Shown here: one piece after another, positions 21,948 through 63,730 of the stretch | How positions within the stretch are numbered: the first letter of the stretch is position 1 | Layout of the letters: each line of letters opens with the position of its first letter | Source of the DNA: Verrucomicrobiales bacterium | Lineage (GTDB): Bacteria > Verrucomicrobiota > Verrucomicrobiia > Limisphaerales > UBA9464 | DNA: 64,000 bases | NCBI GenBank assembly: GCA_027488845.1 | Contig: JAIYBC010000055.1 | Span: forward strand, 77,301-141,300 | Direction of reading: 5' to 3' | The notes under the pieces: generated by a model | The model's input: only the letters and a program-made list of their open reading frames with translations | Database searches by the model: none | What the model was told of the DNA's origin: nothing | Made by a program: the position numbers and the translations under genes

Positions 21948-24900
21948 TCAATGGGCGGCCAGGGCCGCACCGTCCCATCCGCCTCCCAGCGCCTTCACCA
22001 ACTGCACGGTCGCGACGCGGCGTTGGCCTTGGATCCGCGCGCTCTCCCGTCGGACGGCCAGCGCGGTGCGGTCGGCGTCGATGACCTCCAGTTGGCTCGA
22101 GGCCCCCGCGTCGTGGCGTGCCCGGGCCAGTTCCACGGCACGTCCCGCGGCCTTGTCCGCGGCCTCGGCCGCGACGGCCTGGTCCTGGAGGGATTTCAGG
22201 CCGGACAGGTTCTCCTGCACCTCGGCGAAGGCGACGAGGACCTGTTGGCGGTAGGCGCTGACCGCCTCGTCGTAGCCGGCCCGCGCTCGGGCGAGGTCGC
22301 TCCGGTTCCGGCCGCCCTGGAAGAGCGGCAGCGTGAGGGTCGGTCCGATCGCCCACGTCCGGCTGTCCCACTTGAAGAGGGTGTCCATGTCGGCGCTCAG
22401 CACCCCACCCGAGCCGGTCAGGCGGAGGGAAGGGAAGAAGGACGCCTTGGCGATTCCGATGCGGCTGTTCGCCGCGGCAAGCCGCCGCTCGGCGCGGGCG
22501 ACGTCGGGGCGTCGCTCGAGCAGGTCCGAGGGCAGGCCTGCGGGAACGGCCGGAACCTCCGGGTGGTAGTGGCCCGTGTCCGCGATGTGGAATCCCGGCG
22601 CCGGCACGCCGACCAGGACCGCGATGGCGGTTTCCAGCGAAGCGCGCGAGCGGTCGAGTCCGGCCAATTCCACCTCCGCGGAGGCCCGTTCCGTCTCCGC
22701 CCGCGCCAGGTCGAGCTCCGTGGCGGAACCGGCGTCGAGCCGTGACCGGACGATGGCCAGGGCCTCGGTGCGCAGGCGGAGCGTGTCGCGGACGATCCCC
22801 CGCTGGTTGTCGGTGCTGCGCAGGGTGAAGTAGGTCTGGGCGAGTTCCGACTGCACGGAGAGCAGCACGTTGGCGAAGTCCGCCACCCCCGCCTGCGCCT
22901 CCGACCGGGCTCCCTCGAAGGAGCGGCGGACGCGTCCCCAGAGGTCGATCTCGTAGCTGAGGTCCACGGGCACGCGCAGGGTGTTGAACGACGGCGAGCC
23001 GAAGTTGGGGAACTGGTTCGGCGAAAGCCGTTCGCGCCGCCAGGAGGGATCGAAGCTCAACGCCGGGAAGAACTCGCTGCGGGCGAGCCGGGCGTAGGCG
23101 CGGGCCTGGTCGATGCGCGCCAGCGCCCCGAGGACCTGCTGGTTGTTGGTGTTGGCGGCCGCCATGAGGCGGTCCAGCTCGGCATCGGCGAACAGCGTCC
23201 ACCAGGCGCCCTTGGGCAGCGTGTCTTTCGGTTCGCCCGCCTTCCAGGAGCCCGTGTTCTCGAAGGCGGCTGGAACGGAGTTGGTCGGACGCCGGTAATC
23301 GGGTCCGACGGTGAGCGAGCCGGCCTCGGCGCGGTCGGGGAAACCGGCAAGCAGCAGGGCCAGGGTCGTCGCGGCGGCGACGGCCTTGGCAGCGGGACCG
23401 ACCGCTGCCGATTTGCGTTGGAGCCGGGCGGTCATCTTCATGATCACCACGTAGAAGACCGGCGTCAGGAAGAGCCCGAAGAAGGTCACGCCGATCATGC
23501 CGGCGAACACGGCCACGCCCATCGCCTGGCGCATCTCCGATCCGGCACCGGTGGAGACCACCAGCGGATAGACGCCGGCGATGAAGGCGATGGAGGTCAT
23601 CAGGATCGGGCGCAGGCGGAGCTTGCAGGCCTCGAGCGCGGCCTCGACCGGTCCGAGTCCCTCGTGCTGCTTCTCGCGGGCGAACTCGACGATCAGGATC
23701 GCGTTCTTGCAGGCGAGTCCCACGAGAACGATCAGGCCGATCTGGGTGAAGATGTTGTTGTCCGAACCCTTGAGCAGCACGCCGACCATGGCGCTGAGCA
23801 GGGTCATCGGGACGATGAGGATGATCGCCAGGGGAAGGCTGAGGCTTTCGTACTGCGCGGCGAGGACGAGGAACACGAGCAGGATGCAGAGCGGGAAGAT
23901 GTAGGCCGCGGTGTTGCCGGCGATCCGCTGCTGGTAGGTGAGCTCGGTCCATTCGTAGGCCATGCCCGGGGGCAGGGACTTGCGGACGAGGTCCTCGATG
24001 AACCGTTCGGCCTGGCCGGAGCTGTATCCCGGTGCCGGCGCGCCGTTGATCTCGGCGGCGGGGTAGCCGTTGTAGCGCATGACCCGGTCGGGACCGAACG
24101 AGTCGCGGACCTTCACCAGCGTGCCGAGCGGGACCATCCGGCCCTGTTCGTTGCGGACGCGCAGGCGGCTGATGTCGTCGGCTCCGTCGCGGAACGGGGC
24201 GTCCGCCTGGGCCACGACCTGGAAGGTGCGGCCGAAGCGGTTGAAGTCGTTCACGTACAGCGAGCCGAGGTAGATCTGCATCGTCTCGAACAGCGACCCG
24301 AGCGGCACGCCGAGCGACTTGGCCTTCACGCGGTCCACGTCGAGGTCGATCTGGGGGACGTTGATCTGGTAGGTGGAATAGACGCCCTGGAGGACGTTGG
24401 TCTGGTAGGCTTGGCCGATGGCGCCCCAGGTCGCTCCGAAGAGCGCCTCGGGTCCGAGGTTGGCGCGGTCCTCGACGAACAGCTTGAAGCCGCCGCCGGT
24501 GCTGAGGCCGTTCACGGCCGGCGCGCCGATCACGATCATCCGCGCCTCCTGGATCTCGGCGAGGGCCTGGTAGAGCTTGCCGATGATGGCGTCGGCGCTC
24601 TTGTCGGGCGTCGTGCGCTTCTCGAAGTCCTCGAGCGTGATGAACGCGATGCCGGAGTTGGGGCTGGCGGTGAAGCCGTTGGGCGAGAGGCCTGGGAAGG
24701 CCACCGAGGCGGCCACGCCGGGAACCTTCAGCGCGAGGTCGCTCATGCGGCGGATCACGGCGTCGGTGCGGTCGAGCGACGCGGCGTCGGGCAGCTGGGC
24801 CACGCAGATGAGGAACTGCTTGTCCTGGTTCGGTATGAAGCCCGCGGGAACCGCCTGGAAGACGCGTCCGGTGAGGACGACGAGACCGGCGTAGACGAAG

Positions 24901-26549
24901 AGGGCCACGGCGCTGACGCGGATGACGCGGGCGACGGCGGCCGAATAGCGGCGCGAGGCCCAGTCGAAGAAGCGGTTGAACGGACGGAAGAACCAGCCGA
25001 ACACGGCGTCGAGCACGCGCGTGGGGGCGTCCTTCGGGGCGTGGTGGTCGCGGAGCAGCAGCGCGGACAGCGCGGGGGAGAGCGTCAGGGAGTTGAAGGC
25101 CGAGATCACCGTCGAGATGGCGATGGTGATGGCGAACTGCTTGTAGAACATGCCGCTGAGGCCGGAGATGAAGGCGGTCGGGATGAACACCGCGCAGAGC
25201 ACCAGGGCCGTCGCCACGATCGGACCGGTCACCTCGTTCATCGCCTTCCGCGTGGCGTCCACGGGCGAGAGGCCGAGGGCGATGTTCCGCTCGACGTTCT
25301 CCACCACCACGATGGCGTCGTCGACGACGATGCCGATGGCCAGCACCAGGCCGAAGAGCGAGAGCGCGTTGATCGTGAACCCGAGCCACGCCATCACCGC
25401 GAAGGTGCCGACCAGCGAGACCGGCACCGCCGCCAGCGGGATGATCGAGGCGCGCCAGGTCTGGAGGAACACCAGCACCACGACCACCACCAGGGCGATC
25501 GCCTCGAACAGCGTGTGGATCACGGCGTCGATGGACTTGTCCACGAAGACCGTCGGATCGTAGACGACGGCGTAGTCCAGTCCGGCCGGGAAGTTGCGCT
25601 TGAGCGTCTCCATGGCCTCGCGGACGTCGCGGGAGAGCTTGAGGGCGTTGCTGCCGGGCTGCTGGAAGACGGGGATGGCGACGGCGGACCTGTTGTTGAG
25701 CAGCGAGCGCAGGGCGAACTCGCCGGCGCCGAGCTCGATGCGGGCGACGTCGCGCAGCTGCACGGTTTCGCCGTGGGCACCGCGCTTCACGATGATGTCG
25801 CCGAACTCGGCCTCGGTCACGAGGCGGCCCCGGGTGTTGATCTGGAGTTCGAACGCGGCCGGGGAGGACACCGGCTGCTGGCCGATGGCGCCGGCGGCGA
25901 CCTGCACGTTCTGTTCGCGGATCGCGTTCACCACGTCGCCCGGCGTGAGCCCCTTGGAGGCGACCTTGTCGGGATCGAGCCACACCCGCATGGCGTAGTC
26001 GCCCGATCCGAAGATCTGCACCTGGCCGACGCCGTCGACGCGGGCCAGGACGTCCTTCACCTGGAGCGTGGCGTAGTTGCGGATGAAGATGTCGTCGTAG
26101 GAGGCGTCGGGGGAGAACAGGTGCACCACCATGGTGAGGTCCGGCGTGGACTTGATGGTGAGCACGCCGAGGCGGCGGACCTCCTCGGGCAGCTTCGGCA
26201 AGGCCTGGGAGACGCGGTTTTGGACCAGCACCTGGGCCTGGTCGATGTCGGTGCCGAGCTTGAAGGTCACCGTGAGCGTCATCACGCCGTCGCTGGTGGC
26301 CTGGGAGAAGGTGTAGAGCGAGTTCTCGACGCCGTTGAGCTGCTGTTCCAGCGGGACGGCGACGGTCTCGGAGATGGTCTTCGGATTGGCGCCGGGATAG
26401 ACGGCGCGGACGACGATCTGGGGCGGGACCACCTCGGGGTACTCGCTGATCGGCAGCCGGTACATCGAGATGAGGCCGACGATGAAGATCAGGATCGAGA
26501 GGACCCCGGCGAAGATGGGTCTCTTGATGAAGAAGTGGGAGAAGTTCAT
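21948..26549 (-). CDS. HAE1-family multidrug RND pump (AcrB-like) continuous in-frame with a NodT/OprM-family outer membrane factor
   Basis: A single stop-free 1533-aa frame. Residues about 1-1040 are a complete AcrB-like pump, starting [18 protein letters not shown] and ending at TM12 (...[18 protein letters not shown]). There is no stop, and the frame continues into [41 protein letters not shown] followed by a full outer-membrane-factor body with both repeat halves. Confidence 0.7.
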
Positions 26550-26576
26550 GGGGGACCGGGGCGGGACGGCCTGGGA

Positions 26577-30424: not shown

Positions 30425-30829
30425 GGGATCGGCTTGGGATCCTGTGGACCGACGGCGCCACGGCCAAGCGAGGAATGGGTGGAATTCCGCGGAAACCGGG
30501 CGTCCTCGGCGATGTTGACACCGCGGGGCCGGGGTGACACTTGTCGGCGGTCGGTAGCAGCCTAAGTCATCCGCCTTCCTGCGGAGTGACGCGGGGGAAC
30601 CAACTTCCGCGGAGCGATCCGCGGACGGGGCGAACGGCACCGGGCAACCGGGGCCAAGGTCACTTCCAAGACCAAGCCCGTCAGCTAACCCCGTCGGCAA
30701 CTGGAAGGGCGAACCTCTAGCCCCGCCGCGTGGCGGGGATCCACGTTCACCCCGTTAGAAACCGCATGGCGGCCTCGTGCCGTCGTGCCCCGGTCCGACG
30801 CGCCCCGGCGTGGCGGACCTCTGACTGCC

Positions 30830-31106: not shown

Positions 31107-32894
31107 ATGACCGCTGTCATTTCCGTCGCGGGTGCCGCCATCACGGCAGGCTGGATCCTGCTGGGCTTGCTCGTCCTCTACTGGCTCCTCGGCCTGGTCC
31201 TCATCGACGAGCGCCAGGTGGGCGTCGTCGTGAAGCGCTTCGCCTCGAAGTCCCTCCAGCCCGGACGCCTCGTCGCCCTCGACGGGGAGGCCGGCTACCA
31301 GGCGGACACGTTGGCTCCGGGCCTCCATTTCGGCTACTGGCGCTGGCAGTACCAGATCCTGAAGGTGCCCGTCACCGAGGTCGCCCCGGGCGGGATCGCG
31401 CTCGTGGTGGCCGCGGACGGCGCCCCCATCCCGCCCGAACGGATCCTCGGCCAGGTGGTGGACTGCGACGACTTCCAGGATGCCCGGAAGTTCCTTGTGA
31501 ATGGCGGTGAACGCGGGCGTCAGCTCGGCTTGATCACGGCCGGCACCTACCGCATCAACACGGCGCTGTTCACGGTGATCACCGCGATCCAGGCGCCTTC
31601 CCACGGCATGAGCCCGGGCGCCTTGTTCGTCCAGCGGGTGGAGCCGGACATGGTGGGCATCGTCACCACGCTGGACGGTCGCCCCATCGATCCGGGCGAG
31701 ATCGCCGGCCCCGTGGTGGCCAACCATGACAACTTCCAGAACGCCCAGGCGTTTCTCGATGGCGGCGGACGTCGCGGCCTCCAGGAGCAGGTGCTTCTCA
31801 GCGGCAGCTGGAACCTCAACCCGTGGTTCGCCCAGGTGGAGCAGGTGCGCATGGTGGAGGTGCCCATCGGGTCGGTCGGCGTGGTGATCTCCTACGTCGG
31901 CGCGGCGCATGTCGACGTCAGCGGCACCGACTTCAAGCACGGCGACCTGGTCAACGTGGGCCACAAGGGCGTGTGGGTTTCGCCGCTCTATCCGGGACGC
32001 CATCCGCTGAACACGCACATCATGAAGGTGGAGCTGGTGCCCACCACCAACATCGTCCTGAACTGGGCCTCGCGGACGGAGTCGCACCACTACGACGCCA
32101 AGCTCTCGTCGATCACCGTGCGGTCCTGCGACGGCTTCGCCTTCAACCTCGACGTCTCGCAGATCATCCATGTCGGGGCGCTCGACGCTCCCAAGGTGAT
32201 CTCGCGGGTGGGCTCGATGCAGAACCTGGTGGACCACGTCCTGCAGCCGATCGTGGGCAACTACTTCCGCAACTCCGCCCAGGACTACACCGTGCTCGAC
32301 TTCCTCGGCGCCCGCAGCCAGCGGCAGGTCGAGGCGGCCTCGCACATCCGCACGGCGTTGGCGGCCTACGACGTCCAGGCGATCGACACGCTGATCGGCG
32401 ACATCAACCCGCCGGGCGAGCTGATGCAGACCCAGACCGACCGCAAGATCGCCGAGGAACAGCGCAAGACCTACGAGGTGCAGGAGGCCGCCCAGGTGCA
32501 ACGCCAGCAGTTGGTGCGGCAGACCTCGATGGCGGACATCCAGCAGCAGGTGGTCGGTGCGGAGCAGGGGGTGAACATCGCCGAGCTGAAGTCCAACGCG
32601 CACATCAAGCAGGCCACCGGCGAAGCCGAGGCGATCCGCCTCCGTTCGATCGGCGAGGCCGAGGCCATCCGGGCGACCGGTTCGGCCAAGGCCGAGGCGT
32701 ATCGGTCGGGCGTGGAGGCCCTGGGCGCCCAAGGCTACACCCTGATGCAGATGATGCAGATCGTCGGCGAGCGGAACGTGCGGATCGTCCCGGATGTCGC
32801 CGTGACCGGCGCCGGCGGGCAGGCCGGCCTGGTGGAAGGCCTGCTCGGCACGCTGCTGCGGAAGGAAACCGTCGCCATCGCGTCCAAGGCGTGA
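31107..32894 (+). CDS. flotillin-like SPFH/band-7 family protein
   Basis: An N-terminal TM anchor, an SPFH domain, and a long Ala/Glu/Gln-rich coiled-coil C-terminus (EAEAIRLRSIGEAEAIRATGSAKAEAYRSG). Confidence 0.85.
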   Translation: MTAVISVAGAAITAGWILLGLLVLYWLLGLVLIDERQVGVVVKRFASKSLQPGRLVALDGEAGYQADTLAPGLHFGYWRWQYQILKVPVTEVAPGGIALVVAADGAPIPPERILGQVVDCDDFQDARKFLVNGGERGRQLGLITAGTYRINTALFTVITAIQAPSHGMSPGALFVQRVEPDMVGIVTTLDGRPIDPGEIAGPVVANHDNFQNAQAFLDGGGRRGLQEQVLLSGSWNLNPWFAQVEQVRMVEVPIGSVGVVISYVGAAHVDVSGTDFKHGDLVNVGHKGVWVSPLYPGRHPLNTHIMKVELVPTTNIVLNWASRTESHHYDAKLSSITVRSCDGFAFNLDVSQIIHVGALDAPKVISRVGSMQNLVDHVLQPIVGNYFRNSAQDYTVLDFLGARSQRQVEAASHIRTALAAYDVQAIDTLIGDINPPGELMQTQTDRKIAEEQRKTYEVQEAAQVQRQQLVRQTSMADIQQQVVGAEQGVNIAELKSNAHIKQATGEAEAIRLRSIGEAEAIRATGSAKAEAYRSGVEALGAQGYTLMQMMQIVGERNVRIVPDVAVTGAGGQAGLVEGLLGTLLRKETVAIASKA

Positions 32895-33306: not shown

Positions 33307-33360
33307 GGCTGTGGCAGCCTCCCTTCTCTTCGAAAGACGACAGACCCGTCCCATTCCGCC

Positions 33361-33508
33361 ACGTGACCACGTCTCCTTCGGCGTGCGGGTGTAGGAGACG
33401 ACGTGAGGAGTCTCTGGCCGACTTGCGGGCGTCGTGGATTGGGATTGGTTTCTCGGGGGGACAGAGACTCGTGACCTCGTCTCTTACGGCGTGCAGGGTT
33501 GCGTCATG
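33361..33508 (+). repeat. copy 1 of a repeated ~60-nt intergenic element (units U1-U2-U3 with ACGTG cores at 20-nt spacing), plus an adjacent partial second copy (U1-U2 at 33469-33508)
   Basis: The element reads acgtgaccacgtctccttcg|gcgtgcgggtgtaggagacg|acgtgaggagtctc. Related copies are at 37367-37398 and 42505-42564. The shared core is GTAGGAGACGACGTGAGGAG. Confidence 0.7.
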
Positions 33509-35962
33509 TGCGCGTTCTCATGGTTCCGGTGGAGGGGTGGGTTGACGTTGGCCCTGTGCTTCACTTTGCCTGCCTTCGCCGCGGACCGGACGCCGGCCCG
33601 TCCGAGCCTGAGTGGCATCTACCCGCATCTCGCCATGTTCAATGACGATGGGGAATGCGGCACGGGCGCCGTGGTGCCGTGGGCCGGTCGCCTTTGGGTG
33701 ATCACCTATTCGCCGCACAAGCCCAATGGGTCCACCGACAGGCTCTACGAGATCGACGACGCCCTGAATCCGACCATCCGCCCCGAGAGCGTCGGGGGCA
33801 CGCCGGCCAACCGGATGATCCATGCCGAGTCGCAGCAGCTCCTGATCGGGCCCTATGTGATCGACACGAACCGCCACGTCCGAGTGCTCACGCCCCAGAA
33901 GATGCCGGGTCGCCTCACCGGCACGGCGCGGCACCTGACCGATCCGGCGAACAAGGTCCTCTACGCCACGATGGAGGAGGGGTTTTACGAGGTGGACGTA
34001 CGTTCGCTCGCCGTCACCCGGCTTTACCCGGACGCGAATGGCGATGCCGGCGGCCATGCCGGGGCGCTGCTGCCGGGCTATCACGGCAAGGGCCTGTACT
34101 CCGGGCAGGGCCGGCTGGTGTACGCGAACAACGGCGAACTTTCCCGGGATGCCCAGACGCGTCCGGACATCGAGTCGGGCTGCCTCGCGGAATGGGACGG
34201 GACGAACTGGACCGTGGTCCGGCGCAACCAGTTCACCGACGTCTCCGGCCCCGGCGGCATCGCGGGCAACGCCCATGCCGCCACGGATCCGCTCTGGAGC
34301 ATCGGCTGGGACCACCGTTCGCTGATCCTGATGCTCCGCGACGGCGGGCGCTGGCAGACGTTTCGCCTGCCGAAGTCGAGCCACTCCTACGACGGCGCGC
34401 ACGGCTGGAACACCGAGTGGCCGCGCATCCGGGACATCGGCGAAAAGGATCTGCTGATGACGATGCACGGCCAGTTCTGGCGTTTCCCGAAGACCTTCTC
34501 CGCCGCAAACACGGCCGGCATCCGACCGCGCTCCAGCTACCTGAAGGTCGTGGGCGACTTCGCCCGTTGGCACGACCGGGTCGTCCTCGGCTGCGATGAC
34601 ACGGCGAAGAACGAGTTCCTGAACAAGCGTGCCGCCAAGGGCGCCCTTGCCGGACCGGGCCAGTCGCAGTCGAACCTCCAGTTCGTGGACCCCGCGCAGC
34701 TCGACCGCATCGGTCCGCCCCTGGGCCGCGGTGCGGTGTGGTGGAACGAGTCGGTGAAGGCGGGAGTTCCAAGCGATGCGTTCCTGTTCGCGGGCTTCGC
34801 CGAACGTGGCCTGCACCTGGCGCACGGCGAGGCGGCGCCCGTGACATTCACGCTGGAAACCGGCGACGCCCGCGGGCGCTGGAGAACCCTGCGATCCGTG
34901 ACCGTGCCGGCCCACGGCGCGCAGTGGATCGCCTTCCGGCCATCCGATCCTGGCGAATGGATCCGGCTCACCACGGACCGCGACGCGGCCCTGGTGTCCG
35001 CCCAGTTCCAGTACTCGGCCGAGGATTCCCGTTCGGCTCAGGCGGACTCCGTGTTCGCGGGCGTGGCGCCGGCGGAGGCGACGGACTATTCCGGTGGCGT
35101 CATCCGCACCCGCGGCGACAATCTGCGAACCCTCGCCTTTGCGGCCACCTCGGTTCGAGGCGGCCGGGCCGTGGGCGAGGGCTTTTACGAACTTGGCGCC
35201 GACCTGAAGCTGGTGCGGCGGAACGATCCGGCCGCCCTCGCGTGGACCAAGGCGAACACGGCGGTTCCCGCCGGCGTGCTGCGCGTGGACGCCGCCAGCG
35301 TGGTCTTCACCGACGACCGTGGGAGACGCTGGCGCCTGCCCAAGGGAGCCGCTGCGTTGGCCGGAGACGCCGCGTTGCCCCTGCGCGTGGACCGCGAGGT
35401 CTGCACCGAGCGCGACCTCTTCCAGGCCATGGGCACCTTCTACGAACTCCCGGCGGAGAATGCCGGAGGCTTCGCCAAGGTGCGTCCCATCACGACGCAC
35501 AACCGCCGCATCACCGACTATTGTTCGTATCGCGGCCTTCTCATCCTCTCCGGCGTCGCCACGGATGCACCGGCCGGAACTCCCCATGTCATCCGCTCCG
35601 AGGATGGTGCGGTCGCGTTGTGGGCCGGGGCGGTGGATGATCTGTGGCGCTTCGGCAAACCCCGCGGCCACGGCGGGCCGTGGATGGAAACCGCGGTGAA
35701 GGCGGGCGAACCGTCCGACCCGTATCTCATGACCGGCTACGACGAGAAGCGCCTCCGTTTGTCCCACGCAGAACGTGAGCCGGTGACCCTCCGCGTCGAG
35801 GTGGACCCCACCGGGAGCGGCGTTTGGCGGCCGTATCGGTCGTTTGCCGTGAAGCCGGGTGCGACCGTGAAGCACACCTTTCCGGAATCCTTCCACGCCT
35901 ATTGGGTGCGGGTCGTCGCCGACCGCGACGGCCGCGCCACCGCGCAGTTGGAGTATCGCTGA
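33506..35962 (+). CDS. large hypothetical secreted protein (818 aa)
   Basis: Start at MCAFSWFRWRGGLTLALCFTLPAFAADR (signal peptide). I recognise no family. Confidence 0.6.
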   Translation: MCAFSWFRWRGGLTLALCFTLPAFAADRTPARPSLSGIYPHLAMFNDDGECGTGAVVPWAGRLWVITYSPHKPNGSTDRLYEIDDALNPTIRPESVGGTPANRMIHAESQQLLIGPYVIDTNRHVRVLTPQKMPGRLTGTARHLTDPANKVLYATMEEGFYEVDVRSLAVTRLYPDANGDAGGHAGALLPGYHGKGLYSGQGRLVYANNGELSRDAQTRPDIESGCLAEWDGTNWTVVRRNQFTDVSGPGGIAGNAHAATDPLWSIGWDHRSLILMLRDGGRWQTFRLPKSSHSYDGAHGWNTEWPRIRDIGEKDLLMTMHGQFWRFPKTFSAANTAGIRPRSSYLKVVGDFARWHDRVVLGCDDTAKNEFLNKRAAKGALAGPGQSQSNLQFVDPAQLDRIGPPLGRGAVWWNESVKAGVPSDAFLFAGFAERGLHLAHGEAAPVTFTLETGDARGRWRTLRSVTVPAHGAQWIAFRPSDPGEWIRLTTDRDAALVSAQFQYSAEDSRSAQADSVFAGVAPAEATDYSGGVIRTRGDNLRTLAFAATSVRGGRAVGEGFYELGADLKLVRRNDPAALAWTKANTAVPAGVLRVDAASVVFTDDRGRRWRLPKGAAALAGDAALPLRVDREVCTERDLFQAMGTFYELPAENAGGFAKVRPITTHNRRITDYCSYRGLLILSGVATDAPAGTPHVIRSEDGAVALWAGAVDDLWRFGKPRGHGGPWMETAVKAGEPSDPYLMTGYDEKRLRLSHAEREPVTLRVEVDPTGSGVWRPYRSFAVKPGATVKHTFPESFHAYWVRVVADRDGRATAQLEYR

Positions 35963-36051
35963 GCGGCCAAGACTAGGGGGCTGCACACGTATCGCGGGAA
36001 TTGCGGCATCCGTTGACCGAGGCACGCCCCGGCCTTGAGAGTCGAATCCCG

Positions 36052-37365
36052 ATGAGAGTCCCCCTCCTGTTGCTTGCGGGAATCGCGGTCGGAGCCGCCC
36101 GCGTCCCGGCCGCTGGATCGACGAATCCGCCGCCCGTGGTCACGGCGATCCGCGCCGCCCGCTGGCTGCGGGTCGAGTCCGGCGAGGTGGTCTCGAACGC
36201 CGTGGTGCTGGTCTCGGAAGACCGGATCGTGGACGCCGGAGCCGCTGGGAAAGTGGTCGTGCCGGCCGACGCGAAGGTCATCGACCTCCCGCGTGGCACG
36301 CTGCTGCCCGGCCTCATCGACGGTCACACCCACCTGACCTTCGACGTCGAGCCGGGTTGGGAGAACGGGTCGGTCCGCGAGTCCGCCGCCGAGTCGGCCC
36401 TGCGCGGTGCGCGCAATGCGGCGGTCACGTTGCTTTCCGGCTTCACCACCGTCCGCAACCTCGGTGCCGAAGGCTTCGCGGACGTGGCCTTGGCGAAGGC
36501 CGTGGAGAAGGGCTGGGTCATCGGACCGCGGATCGTGCCCTGCGCCCATGTGCTGAGCCCGACCGGAGGTCCGGGGGACAACGACGGCTTCATTCCGGGC
36601 GTGGTCGAGCGGGGCTACCGCCAGGGAGTCGCGGACGGCGTGGAGGCGGCGGTTGCGGCGGTCCGTTACCAGATCAAGCACGGCGCGAAGGTCGTGAAGG
36701 TGATGGCCACCGCAGGGGTGATGTCCTTCGAGGGCACCGCGGGTGCCCAGCAGTTCTCCGAGGCGGAACTGCGGGCGATCTGCGAGGAAGCCCACCGACA
36801 TGGCGTCCGGGTCGCGGCGCACGCGCACGGACCGGAGGGGATCGAGGCGGCGATCCGGGCCGGCGTGGACTCCGTCGAGCACGGTTCGCTGATGGGCGAC
36901 GCCGGGATCACCCTGATGAAGGAGAAGGGGACCTGGCTCGTGCCGACCCTGGCCACCTGGTACTGGGACCAGTTCACCCCGGAGGACAGCTATCCGGCGG
37001 CGATGTGGAAGAAGATCCGCTCGATGGGTCGGCTCCGTGTGGATTTCCAGAAGAAGGCCATCGCGGCCGGCGTGAAGGTGGCGCTGGGCTCGGACGCGGG
37101 CACATATCCACACGGGAAGAACAACCTGGAGTTCTGGCAGCTCACGGAGTTCGGGCTGACGCCGCTGCAGGCAGTCCAGGCCGGCACCATCCGCGCGGCG
37201 GAGATGCTGGGGATGGAGAAGGAGATCGGTCGGGTCTCTCCCGGATTCCTCGCCGACCTGGTGGTGGTGGACGGCGATCCGGTGGCCGACATCCGGGCGA
37301 TGGAACGCGTCGGCTTCGTGATGAAGGGCGGCGTGGTCTACACGAACGCGTGGAGACCGAAGTAG
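36052..37365 (+). CDS. secreted amidohydrolase family protein (metal-dependent hydrolase)
   Basis: Signal peptide, then the amidohydrolase metal-binding motifs (GLIDGHTHL; VAAHAHGPEG; VEHGS; ALGSDAG). Start at MRVPLLLLAG. Confidence 0.8.
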   Translation: MRVPLLLLAGIAVGAARVPAAGSTNPPPVVTAIRAARWLRVESGEVVSNAVVLVSEDRIVDAGAAGKVVVPADAKVIDLPRGTLLPGLIDGHTHLTFDVEPGWENGSVRESAAESALRGARNAAVTLLSGFTTVRNLGAEGFADVALAKAVEKGWVIGPRIVPCAHVLSPTGGPGDNDGFIPGVVERGYRQGVADGVEAAVAAVRYQIKHGAKVVKVMATAGVMSFEGTAGAQQFSEAELRAICEEAHRHGVRVAAHAHGPEGIEAAIRAGVDSVEHGSLMGDAGITLMKEKGTWLVPTLATWYWDQFTPEDSYPAAMWKKIRSMGRLRVDFQKKAIAAGVKVALGSDAGTYPHGKNNLEFWQLTEFGLTPLQAVQAGTIRAAEMLGMEKEIGRVSPGFLADLVVVDGDPVADIRAMERVGFVMKGGVVYTNAWRPK

Positions 37366-37366
37366 C

Positions 37367-37398
37367 TCGCACGTGTAGGAGACGACGTGAGGAGTCTC
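37367..37398 (+). repeat. copy 2 (short form, U2-U3) of the repeated element
   Basis: gctcgcacgtgtaggagacgacgtgaggagtctc starts 2 nt after the amidohydrolase stop. The U3 tail is identical to copy 1. Confidence 0.65.
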
Positions 37399-37520
37399 AA
37401 ACAGCCGACAAGGATAGGCGGTAGACCGAGGTCCCGGAATTCCCGGGAAGTCCGTCTGCGATGGGCCGTGGATTCGGGCGGGGGTAGGCGTTCCGTAACC
37501 CTCGGCCGGGTCGGATGCGG

Positions 37521-38243
37521 TCAACCGCCGCCGCGTCTCCGAAGCCGGTTCCATCCCGCGCAGGCCGCGACGGCCACGATGGCGGTCCAAGTCGAGGACT
37601 CCGGCACGGCCGTCGCGCCCGAAAGGGTCAACGACCAGCTTTCCAGTCGCATCTGTCCGCCCAATTCGAGGTCCGCCACGTTCAGCCGCCACAGACCGTT
37701 TCCGTCCTGTCCGTGGAAGACCGCCAAGGACAAGGGCCGTTGGGTGTCGGCCGGCTGCACCCGGCCATCCGGTTGGAAGGCTCCGGCGAGGATCCCATCC
37801 AGCAGGGTCGCCCCGTGGATGTCCCCTCCCACGGCGTCGTCGGCGAGGGTCACATCCCAGCCGTTGTAGCCGTGGCCGATCGGATCCCCGAGGGAGATGC
37901 CCACGCCGTTGATCAGGTTCGCCGTCCGGAGCTCGGTGGATCCAGCCACGTCGAGCACCTGCGACAACGAGACGAACATCTCGCTGGCGAAACCGCCCAC
38001 CCCGTCCACGCCGCGTAGCACCAGACCGACCTCGACTCTGGATACGGACCGGATCGACGAGTCGACAACCTCGATGTCGAAACCCACCGGTACCGGTTGG
38101 TCGTCGGCGAGCGTGTAGCCGATGGACTGGAAGCGTGACGCCTCGGAGACGAAGTCCGCCCAGGCGGAGCCGCTGACGAGCAGGGCCGCTCCCAGGGTTG
38201 GTGCGAATCGGGAGAACCGGGGACAGAAAGGGAAGGGCTTCAT
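37521..38243 (-). CDS. PEP-CTERM sorting-domain protein with a proprotein-convertase P-domain-like beta-sandwich
   Basis: A signal peptide and a C-terminal VPESSTWTAIVAVAACAGWNRLRRR, which has the PEP motif, a TM helix and an Arg cluster. Its start overlaps the upstream gene's stop (38240-38243). Confidence 0.75.
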   Translation of the reverse strand: MKPFPFCPRFSRFAPTLGAALLVSGSAWADFVSEASRFQSIGYTLADDQPVPVGFDIEVVDSSIRSVSRVEVGLVLRGVDGVGGFASEMFVSLSQVLDVAGSTELRTANLINGVGISLGDPIGHGYNGWDVTLADDAVGGDIHGATLLDGILAGAFQPDGRVQPADTQRPLSLAVFHGQDGNGLWRLNVADLELGGQMRLESWSLTLSGATAVPESSTWTAIVAVAACAGWNRLRRRGGG

Positions 38244-39025
38244 GGCTGGGATACGGCGCGGTAGAGGCGCATCGGGGAGGTGGTTGTGGGATCAACCTGA
38301 CGGAAGACGCCGTTGGTTCCCGCGGTTGTCGAACCGGGAAGGTTGCTCCAGACGCGGGGAGGCAGGAGGTCGTCGGTGAACTGGACCCGGTAGGTCCGGT
38401 ACGGCACGCCGATGAAGAGGATCTCGATCTCGGCTCCGGTGTGCCGGAGTCGCAGCGCGTTCGGGGCGGACTCGGGCTCGCCGGGAACGGAGAACCTCAG
38501 CCGGACGGTGCCGAATGCCCGGTGCGAGGAACCGGCTTGGCCGTCGGAGACGACATACCGGAACTCGTCGTCGCCGGGAGGACCCGCAGGCGGTTGGTAC
38601 ACCAGCCACGAACCGACCCGGGCGATTGACCCGCCGCGTTCGGTGGTGTTCGACCAGCCTTCGAGGATCAACCCGTAGCCCAACAGCGAGCGGTCGTCGG
38701 CCACGAGCGAGGCCAACGGGATCTTCACGGAACGGCCCGCCTGGAACTCCGCGACGTCCTCGGTCGGCGCGACCACCGATCTCAACGTGAGGACGTTCCA
38801 GAAGCCGGAGTGCAGGAGGAACCCGGACGTGGAGCGGGTCGACGTGCCCGCGACCGCCTGGCCCACGCTGCCCGAGAGGGCGAAGCAGGAACCGGAGGCC
38901 GAGGCGGAACCGTGGAAGGAGCCCCGCACGAGGCCGAACTCCGCGCGCAGACGCGAGGCGGCGGGCACCAGCGACAGGCCGACGCCGAGGGCGTAGGCGC
39001 AGGAACGGAATCGGGAGGTCTTCAT
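38240..39025 (-). CDS. hypothetical secreted protein
   Basis: Start at MKTSRFRSCAYALGVGLSLVPAAS (signal peptide); the ORF-track upstream extension is unlikely to be genic. It is 22 nt downstream of the tail-fiber-like gene, and its stop overlaps the next gene's start. Confidence 0.55.
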   Translation of the reverse strand: MKTSRFRSCAYALGVGLSLVPAASRLRAEFGLVRGSFHGSASASGSCFALSGSVGQAVAGTSTRSTSGFLLHSGFWNVLTLRSVVAPTEDVAEFQAGRSVKIPLASLVADDRSLLGYGLILEGWSNTTERGGSIARVGSWLVYQPPAGPPGDDEFRYVVSDGQAGSSHRAFGTVRLRFSVPGEPESAPNALRLRHTGAEIEILFIGVPYRTYRVQFTDDLLPPRVWSNLPGSTTAGTNGVFRQVDPTTTSPMRLYRAVSQP

Positions 39026-39047
39026 CGCGGTGTTGGAACCTTCCGGA

Positions 39048-42000
39048 TCAGGGACGTGCGGCGCCGGCGCGTTGGACGAGCTGCTCGACCAGGCCGCGGA
39101 GCGATTCGAGATCCCGGCGGAGAGCGCGGTTTTCGGCCTGTTCGATCTCCAGCGCCTCAGCCAGTTCACGGGTGCGGTGATGCAGGCCCTGGATCGCGGC
39201 CAGCGCGACCCCGTCTGCGTCGACCGTGGCGATCGAGCGGTCGGAGGCGCCGAGTCCAAACGCCGCGTGGAAGTCCTGTGCCATCGGGCCGAGGTGCGGC
39301 GTCGCCGACGGGTCGTTCGTGTAGTGCCAGGTCTGGACCGAAAGTGCGGCCACCTTCTCCAGCACCGCCGCGACGTCCACGTCGGCGAACCCGGCCTTCT
39401 TGTTCCGGTCGCTCAGGGTGACAAAGGAGGTCGCGGCGACATGCCCCGCATTCTCGATGGCGACGACCCAGTCCGTCGCGTTCCCGAAGCGGGCCAGGCG
39501 GCCGCTGTCCGCCGAGACATTCAGGGCGCCGTCGTTCGAGGTCCCGCGGCCGTTGATCCGGAGCGCCGGGCTCGCGTTCGAGTTGGTGCTCATGTTCTCG
39601 ATGTGCACCACCGCCGACCGATAGTCCCCCGTCCGGCTCCCGACGAGGTTCGCAGCCCGGTTGCCTGCCGGCGCAGCCACGGAGAGGGTCCCTCCGGCGG
39701 TCAGTGCATTGCTGACAGTCAATGTCGCCGGGATGGTCACATCGCCCCCGAAGACGCTGTCGGCGTTCTGGTCCCATCGCAGGGCGAAGGTCTGTCCGAA
39801 GCGGGTCGATCCCAGGGCGCCACCGCTGTAGCCGTAGAGGACGGGGCCATCCACGGCCACACCGGCGAACGGACGTTGGGTCCCTCCGAACCAGCCGAGT
39901 CCGTGGTTGGTGTCCGAGCCGGCCCTCAGGAACAGGTCGTGGTCGGAAAGCCGCAGGTCGGAGGCAAGGACGGGGTTGCCGTCCAGGCGCGCCAGGTTGG
40001 CTCCGAGCCGAGCGTCGGGCACGGTGCCGGAGGCGAGTTGGGAGGCATTGAGGTCGGTCAGCAGGGATCCGGATCCCCTGAGGTCCGTGGCGTCGACAAA
40101 TCCTCCGATGATGTGCTCCGCTTGGACTGAGTCGGCATAGACCCCCCCATTGGAAACCATGAGCGATCCTCTTGGCAGTCTTACGTCTCCATCCGACTCC
40201 CAAGAGAGCGCGATTTGTTGACCTTCCGAAGTCGAGCCCAAGGCGCCACCTTCGTTGCCGTAGAGCACCGGGCCGTCCACGGCGACCCCTGCGAAGGTGC
40301 GCGGGGCACCACCGAACCATCCGAGCCCGTGGGCCTTGTCGGTCCCACCTCGCAGGAGCAGGTCCTTGTCGGAGAGACGGATGTCGGAGGAGAACACGGG
40401 AAAGCCATCCAGGCGCGGGATGTTCGTCCCGATCCGTGCGTCGGGAAGGATGCCCGAGGTGATTTTGGCGCCATCCAGTCCCGGGATCCGGGAATCGGAA
40501 AGGGTGCCACTCACGATCTTTGACGCATCCAGGTCCGGGATTCGGGCCGCATTGAAGACGCCCGCAACGACCTTGGATGCATTCAGGTCCGGAACCCGGT
40601 CGGTATCGAAGATGCCGGTCGTGATCTTGGACGCGTCGAGGTCCGGGATCCGCGCTGAAGCGAAGACTCCGGAGCCGACGTTCGAAGCGACGAGGTTGGT
40701 GATCTCAGAACCGTCTCCCAGGAATCGTTGCGCACTGACCCCGCCCTGGAAGTTCGCAGTGCTATCGAGCCTTGCGAAGCGAGCCTCTCCATCCGATTCT
40801 GAGACGATGACTAGATGATCTCCGGCCAGTCCACCGGATATCGAGATCACTTTACCCTGTATGCTGGGCATCTGAAAATTACCCCATCCCACTACCTCGC
40901 CATTGCTTTTTAATGCAACACACCCACTCCTAAACGACTCAATTGCAACAACATTGCTCAAGCCGATAGGTACATTCAGGTGCGGTATAATTGGAATGAA
41001 TTGGGAATTTATGTAGCGGGTCGCTCGAACGGTTCCGTCTGGCAAAAGGTATACAAAGGCCCCTGAATTCATTCTGCAGTCGACGATGTTTCGCTGGAAC
41101 ACGTTCGAAAAGCTTGGTTCTTCAAGGGTTCCGTGCGAATTATAGCCAACTCGAGCACCGGATCTGGAGATGATGATGTATTCCTCCATTGAAAAGGTTG
41201 CTATATTTGTATAGCTGTTTGATTGGAATCCCCAAGTCCGTAGGGTTCCGTCTCTGGTAAGTGCTCCTGATCTCCTGTAACCAGCCGCAATCTTCACGAT
41301 GTTGGAAAGCCCCGATGGTATGTTACATTGACCTACACTGTTATCACCCCAGGCGAGGAGTTGGCCTTCCTTGTCCAAGGCCAAGATGTGATCGACACCC
41401 ACTGCCACATCCACGATTCCGGTCTTGGTGGAGGCGATCGAAAGGAGGCCGTTTTGATCCGGACTTCCTGGAATCAGCCGACCATCTCGAGTCAAACCAA
41501 CGATGACCTCGCCCACGGCCACCTTGGTGATTTCCCGTTCTGTGGTTGGGAATCCTAGGAAACTTGGGTAGTGAAAGTTTGAGATCACCTGAACCGACGC
41601 GGATCGGTTTCGGAGCCCTGCTGCGGCGATATTGGTCAGTCCAGCCCCGTTTCCAGTGAACACCCCTCCTGTGATCCGGCTCGCATCCAGTTCCGGCACC
41701 TGTGCGGCCGCCAGAACCCCGGTGACCTGGGATGCCGAAACCGTCCCGCTGAGGGCCGACGCCGTGGCGGCGGTCGTGGCCGTCGACGCGGACTGGGCGC
41801 TGATCGCGGTCGCTGCATGGATTGCATACGGCGTCGGGGACACCGGTTGGCGGGTCGGCAGCGTCTCGTACGCCAATGCGCCGTTGGTTCGGATCCCGAT
41901 CTCAAGCCACCGGGCGGCTCCGTTGAACCGGGGGCCGAAGTCCAGGGTCGCCTGGAAGAGGCCGTTGGTGAGGGTCAGGGCCGCGGCGTCCACCACGGGT

Positions 42001-42209
42001 CCCTGCTGTTCGCCGGCGGTCGCCGCGTCCCAAAGTGTGAAACGCAGGTCGTACACCCCGTTTGCGGCGGAGGGGCCGTCGGTGAGTTGGCCTTGAAAGC
42101 CGAAAGCCGTGCCCTGGGCGGCTGCCCGCACAAGGCCCAGGGCGAGGGCGACGAGAAGTATCCAGTTCCGCGATCCAGACTTGGGGCGGAGGAAAAGTGG
42201 CCGGTGCAT
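39048..42209 (-). CDS. secreted tail-fiber-domain protein: RCC1-like beta-propeller, IPDLDASKI-type 14-aa repeats, duplicated ~145-aa module, C-terminal peptidase-S74 intramolecular chaperone domain
   Basis: Signal peptide MHRPLFLRPKSGSRNWILLVALALG. RCC1-like blades include LAWGDNSVGQCNIPSGLSNIVKIAAGYRRSGALTRDGTLRTWG. Five tandem repeats follow the pattern RIPDLDASKI(V/T)SG. Two copies of SD(I/L)RLSD.DL.LR.G.D..HGLGWFGG..R.FAGVAVDGPVLYG..GGALGST are present. The C-terminal SDRNKKAGFADVDVAAVLEKVAALSVQTWHYTNDPSATPHLGPMAQDF...IQGL matches the auto-cleaving chaperone domain of phage tail spikes and fibres. Confidence 0.8.
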   Translation of the reverse strand: MHRPLFLRPKSGSRNWILLVALALGLVRAAAQGTAFGFQGQLTDGPSAANGVYDLRFTLWDAATAGEQQGPVVDAAALTLTNGLFQATLDFGPRFNGAARWLEIGIRTNGALAYETLPTRQPVSPTPYAIHAATAISAQSASTATTAATASALSGTVSASQVTGVLAAAQVPELDASRITGGVFTGNGAGLTNIAAAGLRNRSASVQVISNFHYPSFLGFPTTEREITKVAVGEVIVGLTRDGRLIPGSPDQNGLLSIASTKTGIVDVAVGVDHILALDKEGQLLAWGDNSVGQCNIPSGLSNIVKIAAGYRRSGALTRDGTLRTWGFQSNSYTNIATFSMEEYIIISRSGARVGYNSHGTLEEPSFSNVFQRNIVDCRMNSGAFVYLLPDGTVRATRYINSQFIPIIPHLNVPIGLSNVVAIESFRSGCVALKSNGEVVGWGNFQMPSIQGKVISISGGLAGDHLVIVSESDGEARFARLDSTANFQGGVSAQRFLGDGSEITNLVASNVGSGVFASARIPDLDASKITTGIFDTDRVPDLNASKVVAGVFNAARIPDLDASKIVSGTLSDSRIPGLDGAKITSGILPDARIGTNIPRLDGFPVFSSDIRLSDKDLLLRGGTDKAHGLGWFGGAPRTFAGVAVDGPVLYGNEGGALGSTSEGQQIALSWESDGDVRLPRGSLMVSNGGVYADSVQAEHIIGGFVDATDLRGSGSLLTDLNASQLASGTVPDARLGANLARLDGNPVLASDLRLSDHDLFLRAGSDTNHGLGWFGGTQRPFAGVAVDGPVLYGYSGGALGSTRFGQTFALRWDQNADSVFGGDVTIPATLTVSNALTAGGTLSVAAPAGNRAANLVGSRTGDYRSAVVHIENMSTNSNASPALRINGRGTSNDGALNVSADSGRLARFGNATDWVVAIENAGHVAATSFVTLSDRNKKAGFADVDVAAVLEKVAALSVQTWHYTNDPSATPHLGPMAQDFHAAFGLGASDRSIATVDADGVALAAIQGLHHRTRELAEALEIEQAENRALRRDLESLRGLVEQLVQRAGAARP

Positions 42210-42504
42210 GACGTCCCCAGTCTTGGGGAACGCCGTGGACGAGTGTCATCGCCCTTAAGGAGGAGACCCAACGGGTCTACGATCGTCCATTCAGGTGATG
42301 TCGTTTCCGCCACGCCAGTATCGTGGCTCGGTTGTTCTGCCGGTTTCCGCCGAGCCTGTCCGCGTCGCCGGGGAAGACGACGGTGCGGCGGATCGGGACC
42401 GCGTCCGGGAGGCCGTCGTCCCGAGGCGGGATGGAAAGCGGCGCCTCCGGGGCTCCGCCCCTGAGCGGGCTGGAAGAGGGGACTGGAAAGCTTGGGAAGG
42501 AGAA

Positions 42505-42564
42505 TCGTGACCTCGCCTGCTACGACGTGCGCGGGTAGGAGACGACGTGAGGAGGTGCCAACTT
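42505..42564 (+). repeat. copy 3 (full U1-U2-U3) of the repeated element
   Basis: tcgtgacctcgcctgctacg|acgtgcgcgggtaggagacg|acgtgaggaggtgcc, with CGTG at 42506, 42526 and 42546. It lies between the enolase stop and the tail-fiber gene start. Confidence 0.7.
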
Positions 42565-42632
42565 CGAGGAACGAGGAAGGCCGCAATCCGTGGGAACGGA
42601 CTGCGGCCTTTGAGCGGGAAGTCCCGGACCGA

Positions 42633-43931
<1,299 letters not shown>

Positions 43932-63482: not shown

Positions 63483-63730
63483 CGTCCGTCCGCCTGGGTT
63501 ACAGGGAATCCGAACGGAATCTGAGACGGAGAACTTCCATGGGCGCGAAGTGGCATCTCATCCGAGGAACCGGCTCCGACCTTTCGGTGTGTTCCCGTGC
63601 CCTCAACCGTCCTGAGTTGCGTCGTCCTTCCGCCGTCCGGGAGAAGGGATACGCGGAGGTACGGAGGCCGCGTGGAGTGGGCCGACGGTCTCTTCAACCT
63701 CCCACGGATCGGGCGCCGCATTCCTGCGGC

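Follow-up and report, generated by a model that had tools for sequence, protein, structure and literature searches.

A GTAG-headed REP/REPIN-type repeat beside a putative S74-matured surface-fibre operon in a Verrucomicrobiales bacterium

The locus

A 64,000-nt stretch from a Verrucomicrobiales bacterium (contig JAIYBC010000055.1 of assembly GCA_027488845.1, positions 77,301 to 141,300; hereafter the window, GC ∼68%) contains a three-gene operon for a tail-fibre-like protein with the same short repeat on either side. Such an arrangement raises the question of whether repeat and operon belong together, and an earlier note on this DNA had taken the bracketing as a sign of co-regulated or mobilisable cassettes. 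We find two unrelated things side by side, a repeat element and a fibre module. The repeat is very probably a GTAG-headed repetitive extragenic palindrome (REP), also present as REP doublets forming hairpins (REPINs), and as a member of such a family it is not to be read as a cassette boundary. The first gene of the operon encodes, with nearly as high a likelihood, a secreted fibre that is matured by a Peptidase_S74 chaperone. The explanation that we favor, which blends a REP, an S74 surface fibre, and anchoring partner proteins, is reasonably probable when taken as a whole.

The operon occupies 37521-42209 on the minus strand and consists of three tightly packed open reading frames (ORFs) of 1053, 261, and 240 aa. 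A 22-nt gap lies between the 1053-aa and the 261-aa ORF, and the 261- and 240-aa ORFs share a 4-nt ATGA overlap.

39048-42209, minus strand: fibre gene, 1053 aa (ORF and translation; Pfam RCC1_2 and Peptidase_S74)
38240-39025, minus strand: Big_9 gene, 261 aa, second gene of the triad (ORF; Pfam)
37521-38243, minus strand: P-domain gene, 240 aa, third gene of the triad (ORF; AlphaFold2 and Foldseek)

Identity of the repeat

The window contains three exact copies of the 20-mer GTAGGAGACGACGTGAGGAG (33391, 37375, and 42535), each on the plus strand, and shuffled sequences contained none. Copies 2 and 3 bracket the three-gene minus-strand operon, as the earlier note had described; the ORFs and the exact 20-mer agree on this. 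A looser search extended the family to six units in three clusters, all of them intergenic; these counts for the organism cover the 64-kb window.

33356-33379 (minus strand, degenerate), 33391-33414 (plus strand), 33464-33487 (minus strand): REP cluster 1, a trimer
37375-37398, plus strand: REP cluster 2, a singleton between the convergent amidohydrolase (stop 37365) and P-domain (stop 37521) genes
42500-42523 (minus strand), 42535-42558 (plus strand): REP cluster 3, a head-to-head doublet

Within cluster 1 the degenerate unit stands head-to-head with a 97-nt tail-to-tail REPIN (33391-33487), and cluster 3 is located 75 nt past the enolase stop codon and ∼290 nt upstream of the fibre start. 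Each unit can be drawn as an unpaired GTAG head followed by a hairpin in which positions 5-9 pair with 20-24 and position 12 pairs with 17, with a GTRA loop and a tandem GA/GA. The motif can be written as GTAGGAGNCGANGTGANGAGNCTC.

The hairpin was evaluated by covariation using a set of 273 units, 134 of which were not selected by the seed, with the pairing statistics taken from 96 distinct units. Among the 134 non-seed units, the GTAG head is present in 109, a GTGA or GTAA loop in 108, and the tandem GA/GA in 121; positions 8/21 are A-T, T-A, or C-G in 115 and positions 12/17 are C-G or G-C in 126. For the distinct units, 88% of the stem cells are paired and compensatory changes are found at all six pairs. 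None of 500 shuffles reached the observed pairing and slid registers gave far lower values. For the 97-nt doublet at 33391-33487, the folding energy is −17.9 kcal/mol (z = −3.2). Going by the aligned units, the hairpin is supported by covariation, not by thermodynamics.

The distribution of the repeat is that of a dispersed family. In a scan of one genome per species, the exact 20-mer was found in at least 119 stretches from at least 80 assemblies, nearly all of which are titled Verrucomicrobiota, Limisphaerales, Pedosphaera, or subdivision 3. Up to seven contigs with the 20-mer come from a single assembly among the matches listed, and only 2 of 2.9 million viral contigs contain it. In these other genomes an inverted copy very often follows the GTAG-hairpin unit, with a spacer of 10-60 nt between the two, and the orientation of the repeat is unrelated to gene direction.

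In addition, ORFs with an HUH motif (MPDHIHL) and a Tyr motif (FYIxxNPV), both features of a REP-associated tyrosine transposase (RAYT), abut the REP in three contigs of other genomes (here and below, such contigs are given by our own L and P labels).

L104 2-568: RAYT-like ORF
L118 1-420: RAYT-like ORF
L120 7296-7886: RAYT-like ORF, with a REP on both sides

The only NCBIfam match of the L104 and L120 ORFs is NF047646, "REP-associated tyrosine transposase" (E 3e-10 and 4e-11, respectively). The L118 ORF shares the HUH/Tyr motifs, and the NCBIfam scores cover L104, L120, and L086, the last of which encodes a classic RAYT ∼1.4 kb from a REP (E 4e-23, 82 bits). Based on their sequences, the REP-abutting ORFs may constitute a distinct RAYT subgroup of Verrucomicrobiota.

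The partly palindromic DNA of the repeat and its covarying hairpin with a GNRA-like loop also speak for an operator for a transcription factor, or a structured regulatory RNA, specific to the genes of the window, and copies 1 and 3 are indeed placed just upstream of an 818-aa gene and upstream of the fibre gene. Such a role is extremely improbable given that copy 2 sits between two convergent stop codons, that both orientations occur in at least 80 assemblies beside genes without detectable similarity to those of this locus, and that the repeat flanks a transposase-like gene of its own. Rfam returned no match at the repeats at either threshold.

The GTAG-headed REP identity is in line with the GTAG REP super-family (Di Nocera et al. 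2013, PMC3733652), in which GTAG lies outside the stem and sub-families differ by complementary stem changes. Its members form head-to-head and tail-to-tail dimers, mostly occupy post-gene positions, are associated with RAYTs, and have already been reported in the Verrucomicrobium Opitutus terrae (PMC3733652). Like the REPs of E. coli and Pseudomonas and the GTAG super-family (PMC3733652), the family described here has an unpaired GTAG and a hairpin, compensatory sub-families, and singletons, dimers, and BIME-like clusters; all six of its units in the window are intergenic, with positions that include the space past a stop codon and that between two convergent genes, and in other genomes analyzed here a Y1/HUH gene is flanked by the repeat. 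Unlike other REPs, the family has a 5-bp stem with one closing pair, a conserved tandem GA/GA, and a GTRA loop; its 20-mer is exact across at least 80 Verrucomicrobiota assemblies and its RAYT-like proteins are divergent. A 20-nt core of this constancy, together with candidate RAYTs, provides a handle on REPIN persistence outside of Proteobacteria.

Two side observations were made on the repeat. Several REP-bearing contigs (L012, L018, L047, L064, L086, L094, L102, and others) come from metagenome-assembled genomes titled Klebsiella, Bifidobacterium, or Akkermansia muciniphila. The other carriers of the repeat bear titles of Verrucomicrobiota groups other than Akkermansia, and the records in question appear to be wrongly labelled or mis-binned. 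Read in one frame, the reverse-complemented REP gives SSRRLL, rarely in frame before a hydrophobic leader (L027 around 1920, with the prepilin-like GFTLIELMVV, and L121 15606-15629). Reverse-complement REPs as routine signal-peptide n-regions were rejected as a candidate explanation, with 2-3 cases in 278 units.

The fibre protein

The 1053-aa protein is composed, in order, of a signal peptide, an N-domain, an RCC1 beta-propeller, shaft repeats, an S74 chaperone, and a C-terminal coiled coil.

Fibre aa 1-31: Sec-type signal peptide, cleavage AAA↓QG (translation)
Fibre aa ∼32-170: conserved N-domain
Fibre aa ∼200-500, 40710-41612, minus strand: RCC1/BLIP-II-like beta-propeller "head" (Pfam RCC1_2; PDB)
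39805-40688, minus strand: shaft region, with direct-repeat families D1 and D2 (translation)
40505-40688, minus strand: three 54-nt "IPDLDASKI"-type repeats of the shaft
39805-40073 and 40231-40499, minus strand: two ∼142-aa duplicated modules of the shaft
39258-39413, minus strand: Peptidase_S74 core, residues 933-984 (Pfam)
39411-39413 and 39396-39398, minus strand: codons of S933 and K938, within SDRNKK

The C-terminal domain matches PF13884 (Peptidase_S74) with 39.5 bits against a cut-off of 22 (E 7e-10, residues 933-984 of 1053). The sequence S933-D-R-N-K-K938 fits the S-D-x-x-x-K motif, and its S, D, R, and K do not vary among 21 homologues, so that the S74 domain with a Ser-Lys dyad proposed in the earlier note is borne out. 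A single-sequence search of the S74 region against the PDB gave no match and a profile search was needed; in the profile alignment, SDRnaK of the S74 domain falls on the motif at which the MyRF ICA domain cleaves itself (PDB 7DC3, E 0.006). The top three Foldseek hits of the AlphaFold2 (AF2) model are also the MyRF ICA domain (probability 0.93-0.97, E 0.03-0.06, TM ∼0.38), which is thus the best match by profile and by fold, and the tailspike endoNF (3GW6) ranks 11th. Identity to solved ICA domains is 12-18%.

The propeller matches Pfam RCC1_2 with an E value of 9e-19 as well as BLIP-II/RCC1 entries in the PDB, and the combination of RCC1 and S74 is found in more than 50 homologues. Collagen repeats, which the earlier note had suggested, do not describe the protein; its repeats are RCC1 blades and the "IPDLDASKI"-type shaft repeats. 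The signal-peptide protein with a tail-fibre-like architecture was recovered as described, with a Sec-type signal peptide at one end and S74 at the other. Taken together, the motif, the profile, and the domain order make an S74-matured secreted fibre a highly likely identity for the 1053-aa protein.

As S74 domains are a typical feature of phage fibres and spikes, one rival reading is a phage-derived particle (prophage remnant, tailocin, extracellular contractile injection system, or gene-transfer agent) whose other genes would lie elsewhere. Relatives of the C-terminal domain at 28-52% identity are found on 61 viral contigs and one homologue is a VgrG-S74 fusion (P0070). Against such a particle stands the Sec-type signal peptide with its conserved cleavage context, as phage-like particles assemble in the cytoplasm. 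Furthermore, the closest S74 relatives are cellular Verrucomicrobial proteins (60-70% identity), the constant partners of the fibre are secreted Ig-like and PEP-CTERM proteins and not baseplate or tail genes, and the neighbours are regulators and housekeeping genes. No capsid, tail, baseplate, terminase, or integrase domain was detected in those genes of the 64-kb window that a Pfam scan covered, which agrees with the earlier statement that this is not a prophage, and phage structural or integrase-type genes are absent around the homologous operons as well. We therefore consider a phage-derived particle very improbable and retain a cellular fibre.

The partner proteins

The second gene of the operon, described in the earlier note as a secreted protein, indeed encodes a signal peptide, followed by a Big_9/cadherin-like Ig domain (Pfam, 26.8 bits against a cut-off of 23.6). 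Homologues with 36-51% identity are found in the same operon position in L121, L123, L131, and L132.

The 240-aa protein has a signal peptide, a P-domain jelly roll, and a C-terminal VPES followed by a transmembrane helix and RRR; its C-terminus reads VPESSTWTAIVAVAACAGWNRLRRRGGG. Although the Pfam P_proprotein score of 20.0 bits falls below the cut-off of 21, the AF2 model (pLDDT 85.7, with a helix at residues 216-238) retrieves chains of Aeromonas ASP, Kex2, and furin in Foldseek with a probability of 1.0 and E values of 5e-6 to 1e-3. ASP, Kex2, and furin are proteases that carry P domains. The earlier description as a PEP-CTERM P-domain protein therefore holds for the P-domain fold; the tail reads VPES and misses the PEP-CTERM hidden Markov models (HMMs). 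In the 34-cluster family of the 240-aa protein, 31 of 35 sequences end in a [VIA]PEx tail, eleven of them with the canonical [VI]PEP, and by inspection the motif is followed by a hydrophobic stretch and then a basic cluster. The extreme C-terminus resembles that of PEP-CTERM/exosortase proteins in its Pro-Glu motif, in the hydrophobic helix, and in the cluster of Arg residues.

The triad in other Verrucomicrobia

Genes for the fibre, the Big_9 protein, and the P-domain protein are found in the same order in L121, L123, L131, L132, L196-L203, and the P0013 contig. We found no description of this triad in the literature. Judging from these sequence comparisons, the operon is a little-studied three-gene fibre module of Verrucomicrobia in which the beta-propeller heads differ between fibres.

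Flanking the triads of L121, L123, and P0013 are genes for a LuxR-type response regulator and for a Reg_prop/Y_Y_Y-HisKA_3 kinase, and those of L131, L132, and L196-L203 have an extracytoplasmic function (ECF)-type sigma factor and a Ser/Thr kinase as neighbours. In the fibres of the latter group, LVIVD and faint BNR, Sortilin, or DUF6242 matches replace RCC1, and the signal peptide, the N-domain (43-47% identity), and the S74 end are kept. The N-domain shows 43-62% identity among fibres whose heads differ, and the cleavage context AxA↓QGTAF is common to them. In L121 (8001-15488), one Big_9/P-domain pair is preceded by two fibre paralogues in tandem, of 1328 and 1134 aa, whose RCC1 heads are not the same. 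L121 and L131 belong to one genome and, therefore, several fibre systems are present per genome. A related arrangement on the P0188 contig has an additional 484-aa gene and, in the fibre slot, a 3177-aa gene that is truncated at the end of the contig and for which no Pfam hits are recorded.

The domain order of the fibre, the heads of its paralogues, and the adjacent sensors lend support to the main rival reading, namely a secreted, endosialidase-like tailspike that binds or degrades glycans for polysaccharide foraging, with the partners acting as accessory binders. The domain order of endoNF (phage K1F tailspike, PDB 3GW6) is propeller, stalk, and autocleaving chaperone, and the fibre shares this layout along with the Ser-Lys dyad S-D-x-x-x-K. 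Paralogous fibres have faint BNR/Sortilin-type and LVIVD matches, and the adjacent sensors have Reg_prop/Y_Y_Y periplasmic domains, which are those of glycan-sensing hybrid kinases. However, RCC1/BLIP-II-type propellers bind and are not hydrolases, no glycoside-hydrolase family was matched in the Pfam and NCBIfam scans, and the PEP-CTERM partner points to cell association. Unlike endoNF, the fibre has a signal peptide instead of a capsid- or tail-binding domain, and its propeller is RCC1/BLIP-II-like, not a sialidase. We regard the tailspike reading as unlikely.

By analogy, the best reading of the operon product is a cell-surface fibre or adhesin, as the earlier note had proposed, with the location suggested by the precedent of the mosaic adhesive trimer (MAT) fibres of Bdellovibrio bacteriovorus (Caulton et al. 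2024, PMC10769870), of which Bd3182 exemplifies the S74 subgroup. MAT fibres are cellular and have a signal peptide, a conserved ∼130-aa beta-rich N-domain, an S74 SDxxxK motif, and swappable modules; experiments located them at the surface, and the study left their cell-surface anchor unidentified (PMC10769870). The Verrucomicrobial fibres are similarly cellular and ∼1000 aa in length, with a signal peptide and N-domain, an S74 SDxxxK end, and several paralogues per genome. Their N-domain is ∼140 aa, follows the signal peptide, and is likened to the Bdellovibrio N-domain by description only. Mosaic module exchange is also shared, with RCC1 and LVIVD/BNR heads combined with the same N-domain and S74 end. 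In contrast to MAT fibres, where the variable module sits at the C-terminal tip, here it is a propeller between the N-domain and the shaft. Downstream of the fibre gene there are also genes for two dedicated partners, the Big_9 protein and the P-domain protein whose tail is of PEP-CTERM type, and regulators are usually nearby, and the host, unlike Bdellovibrio, belongs to a non-predatory phylum. The operon would thus extend cellular tail-fibre-like adhesins, known experimentally only in Bdellovibrio so far, to a phylum that is widespread and free-living, and would offer Big_9 and P-domain proteins as candidate fibre holders for the question that the MAT study left open.

A low-GC head inside the fibre gene

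The propeller head stands out from the rest of the fibre gene. Across aa ∼200-500 the GC content is 0.47-0.50 and the GC content at third codon positions (GC3) is ∼0.5, compared to a GC3 of 0.8-0.94 in the rest of the gene and ∼0.85 in the genome; the low-GC island at 40710-41612 coincides with the RCC1 propeller. The head is at most 35% identical to any homologue, in comparison with 57-62% for the N-domain and 50-70% for the shaft and S74. A search for a donor of the low-GC RCC1 module among 5.8 billion proteins gave no relative above its best one, at 33% identity over 70% of the segment.

Sister strains differ from the window by at most one single-nucleotide polymorphism (SNP) per 500 nt across 37500-39999. 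The number of SNPs climbs toward the head, with 17 in 40000-40499 and 29 in the 112 nt at 40500-40611. The sister-strain contigs stop at 40531-40611, short of the RCC1 head, and for the strain of the window itself, contigs from short reads break at 41821. Because of the low GC, the low identity, the rise in sister SNPs, and the contig breaks, we take the head to be a recently replaced module that probably varies between strains. Replacement of the head at the strain level is what diversifying pressure on a surface-recognition protein would be expected to produce.

Relationship of the repeat to the operon

The genes surrounding the operon and the repeats are as follows.

33506-35962, plus strand: secreted hypothetical protein, 818 aa (ORF; no family assigned)
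36001-37365, plus strand: amidohydrolase gene (best NCBIfam match Xaa-Pro dipeptidase)
42633-43922, minus strand: enolase gene, in a protein cluster with named members from Verrucomicrobiota metagenome-assembled genomes

The 818-aa/amidohydrolase pair (33506-37365) lies between REP clusters 1 and 2, outside the fibre module; the flanking of this pair by copies 1 and 2, noted earlier, was confirmed. If the repeats delimited mobilisable or co-regulated cassettes, the fibre operon and this pair would be the units. There is some evidence in this direction. All three clusters fall within 9.2 kb, with none in the other 55 kb of the window, which is marginally unusual (p ∼0.06 for three random points). 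Relatives of the operon are located beside two-component regulators, and the window copy, between the enolase and dipeptidase genes, would then have moved at some point. REPs are also found at junctions of the same operon type elsewhere, and the boundary of a strain-specific element coincides exactly with the head of REP copy 1.

The dispersal of the repeat speaks against cassettes. The at least 119 loci from at least 80 assemblies place the 20-mer beside genes without detectable similarity to the operon or its neighbours, the repeat orientation is independent of gene direction, and the repeat has its own transposase type. Homologues of the fibre, Big_9, P-domain, 818-aa, amidohydrolase, and enolase proteins were not found in 843 kb of REP loci from other genomes and, therefore, most REPs lie elsewhere. 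A scan of 37300-42700 for promoters and terminators gave nothing above shuffles and no promoter- or operator-like context.

In relatives with 90% nucleotide identity (L124 and L125), synteny in the enolase region is not conserved. The sister strains provide a direct comparison. Between 40611 and 33390, their contigs (L126-L128) match the window at 98.9-99.2% identity, and REP copies 1 and 2 are retained; the inter-repeat block 33390-40611 is collinear and in place. Variation is located instead beyond the head of REP copy 1 and in the fibre gene upstream of ∼40.5 kb, not at cassette ends. Divergence begins 1 nt beyond the GTAG head of copy 1 (33390/33391), where the sisters have a serine recombinase (Resolvase and Recombinase, 496-500 aa; L126 7218-8720 onward) whose stop codon is the TAG of the GTAG head, followed by an HTH_3 gene and a TraG/TrwB-like gene. 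By its gene content, this DNA is a putative strain-specific integrative or conjugative element that abuts the REP. Because the block between the repeats is not what varies in the sister strains, the cassette idea is unsupported, and we consider it highly improbable, slightly more so than a phage-derived particle. Our reading remains that a dispersed REP and a fibre module happen to be neighbours.

Proposed mechanism

If characterised REP systems are a guide, the REP units would be recognised by a Y1 (HUH) transposase of the RAYT type and spread as single-stranded hairpins. The units would then accumulate in intergenic spacers, where, again as in known REPs, they could act as RNA 3′-end or processing hairpins and as rearrangement hotspots.

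For the operon, the 1053-aa fibre is predicted to be exported by the Sec pathway via its signal peptide. The S74 domain would drive trimerisation of the shaft and then cut itself off at S933 by means of S933/K938, leaving a mature trimer of N-domain, ligand-binding propeller head, and shaft. The Big_9 protein and an exosortase/PEP-CTERM-anchored P-domain protein may hold or assemble the fibre via the N-domain; a surface-anchoring role for these partners is tentative and, in our estimation, falls slightly short of an even chance. The propeller head would be exchangeable, and here replaced by a low-GC RCC1 variant. In the relatives, expression might depend on the environment through their sensor systems.

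A more ambitious version, which we rate as possible but doubtful, is that the triad is a surface-fibre system dedicated to this role in Verrucomicrobiota. It would consist of a MAT-like S74 trimer, an Ig-like adaptor, and an exosortase-sorted P-domain anchor, with the head swapped between strains by recombination so as to alter ligand specificity and with intercistronic REPINs that may tune the fibre:partner ratio. If true, such a system would name the anchor that is missing from the Bdellovibrio MAT study.

Several observations weigh against the explanation that we favor. Concerning the repeat, a single REP unit folds weakly (−2.7 kcal/mol, z = −0.8), the RAYT-like ORFs of L104 and L120 score 40-43 bits against an NCBIfam cut-off of 80 and leave Pfam Y1_Tnp unmatched, and no RAYT gene was found in the 64-kb window. 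Concerning the fibre, the S74 model is of moderate quality (pLDDT 72.9) with weak fold hits (E 0.03), and the operon in the window, unlike its relatives, is without an adjacent two-component regulator. The 240-aa protein, unlike PEP-CTERM proteins, leaves the PEP-CTERM HMMs unmatched (Pfam E ≤ 0.01; NCBIfam E ≤ 0.1), and no exosortase gene was found among the window genes scanned. Lastly, bearing on the separateness of repeat and operon, REPs are located at fibre-operon-type junctions in four other loci, where they occupy no other position, so that a specific local role in the expression of this operon is conceivable.

These junction loci are 10-20 kb in length and were fetched via the operon proteins, not via the repeat. 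In L121, the REPs (8091-8187 and 15606-15629) are upstream of or within the 5′ ends of the fibre and Big_9 genes. In L131 (8144-8210), L132 (8012-8035), L196 (7873-7997), and L197-L203, the REPs separate the fibre gene from the Big_9 gene. The number of REPINs at this position varies among strains of one population (L196-L203), and gene callers split on the REPIN inside the Big_9 ORF (339 versus 251-254 aa). The naive p value for junction enrichment is 0.01-0.06, for a sample that is small and partly orthologous. In E. coli, REPs affect the relative expression of upstream and downstream genes. The junction REPs may be there because long spacers tolerate them, or because they change how strongly upstream genes are expressed relative to downstream ones. 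The survey of related loci for the flanking element, which the earlier note had proposed, thus returned junction REPs in four loci and an element that is widely dispersed elsewhere.

Other features of the window

Three further features of the window, apart from the repeat and the operon, were recorded.

21948-26573, minus strand: 1541-aa ORF with an AcrB-type resistance-nodulation-division pump (ACR_tran, aa 11-1044) and OEP (best stretch aa 1350-1530)
30549-30714, plus strand: cyclic di-AMP (ydaO-type) riboswitch, 52 bits, upstream of an SPFH/Band 7 gene (31107-32894)
57051-63554, minus strand: 2167-aa secreted protein with a thermolysin-type M4 peptidase and HYR, TIG, and TSP_3 repeats

From its domain content, the 1541-aa ORF may be a pump fused to its outer-membrane factor. 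The ydaO-type riboswitch overlaps the 5′ end of a divergent GDSL-lipase ORF.

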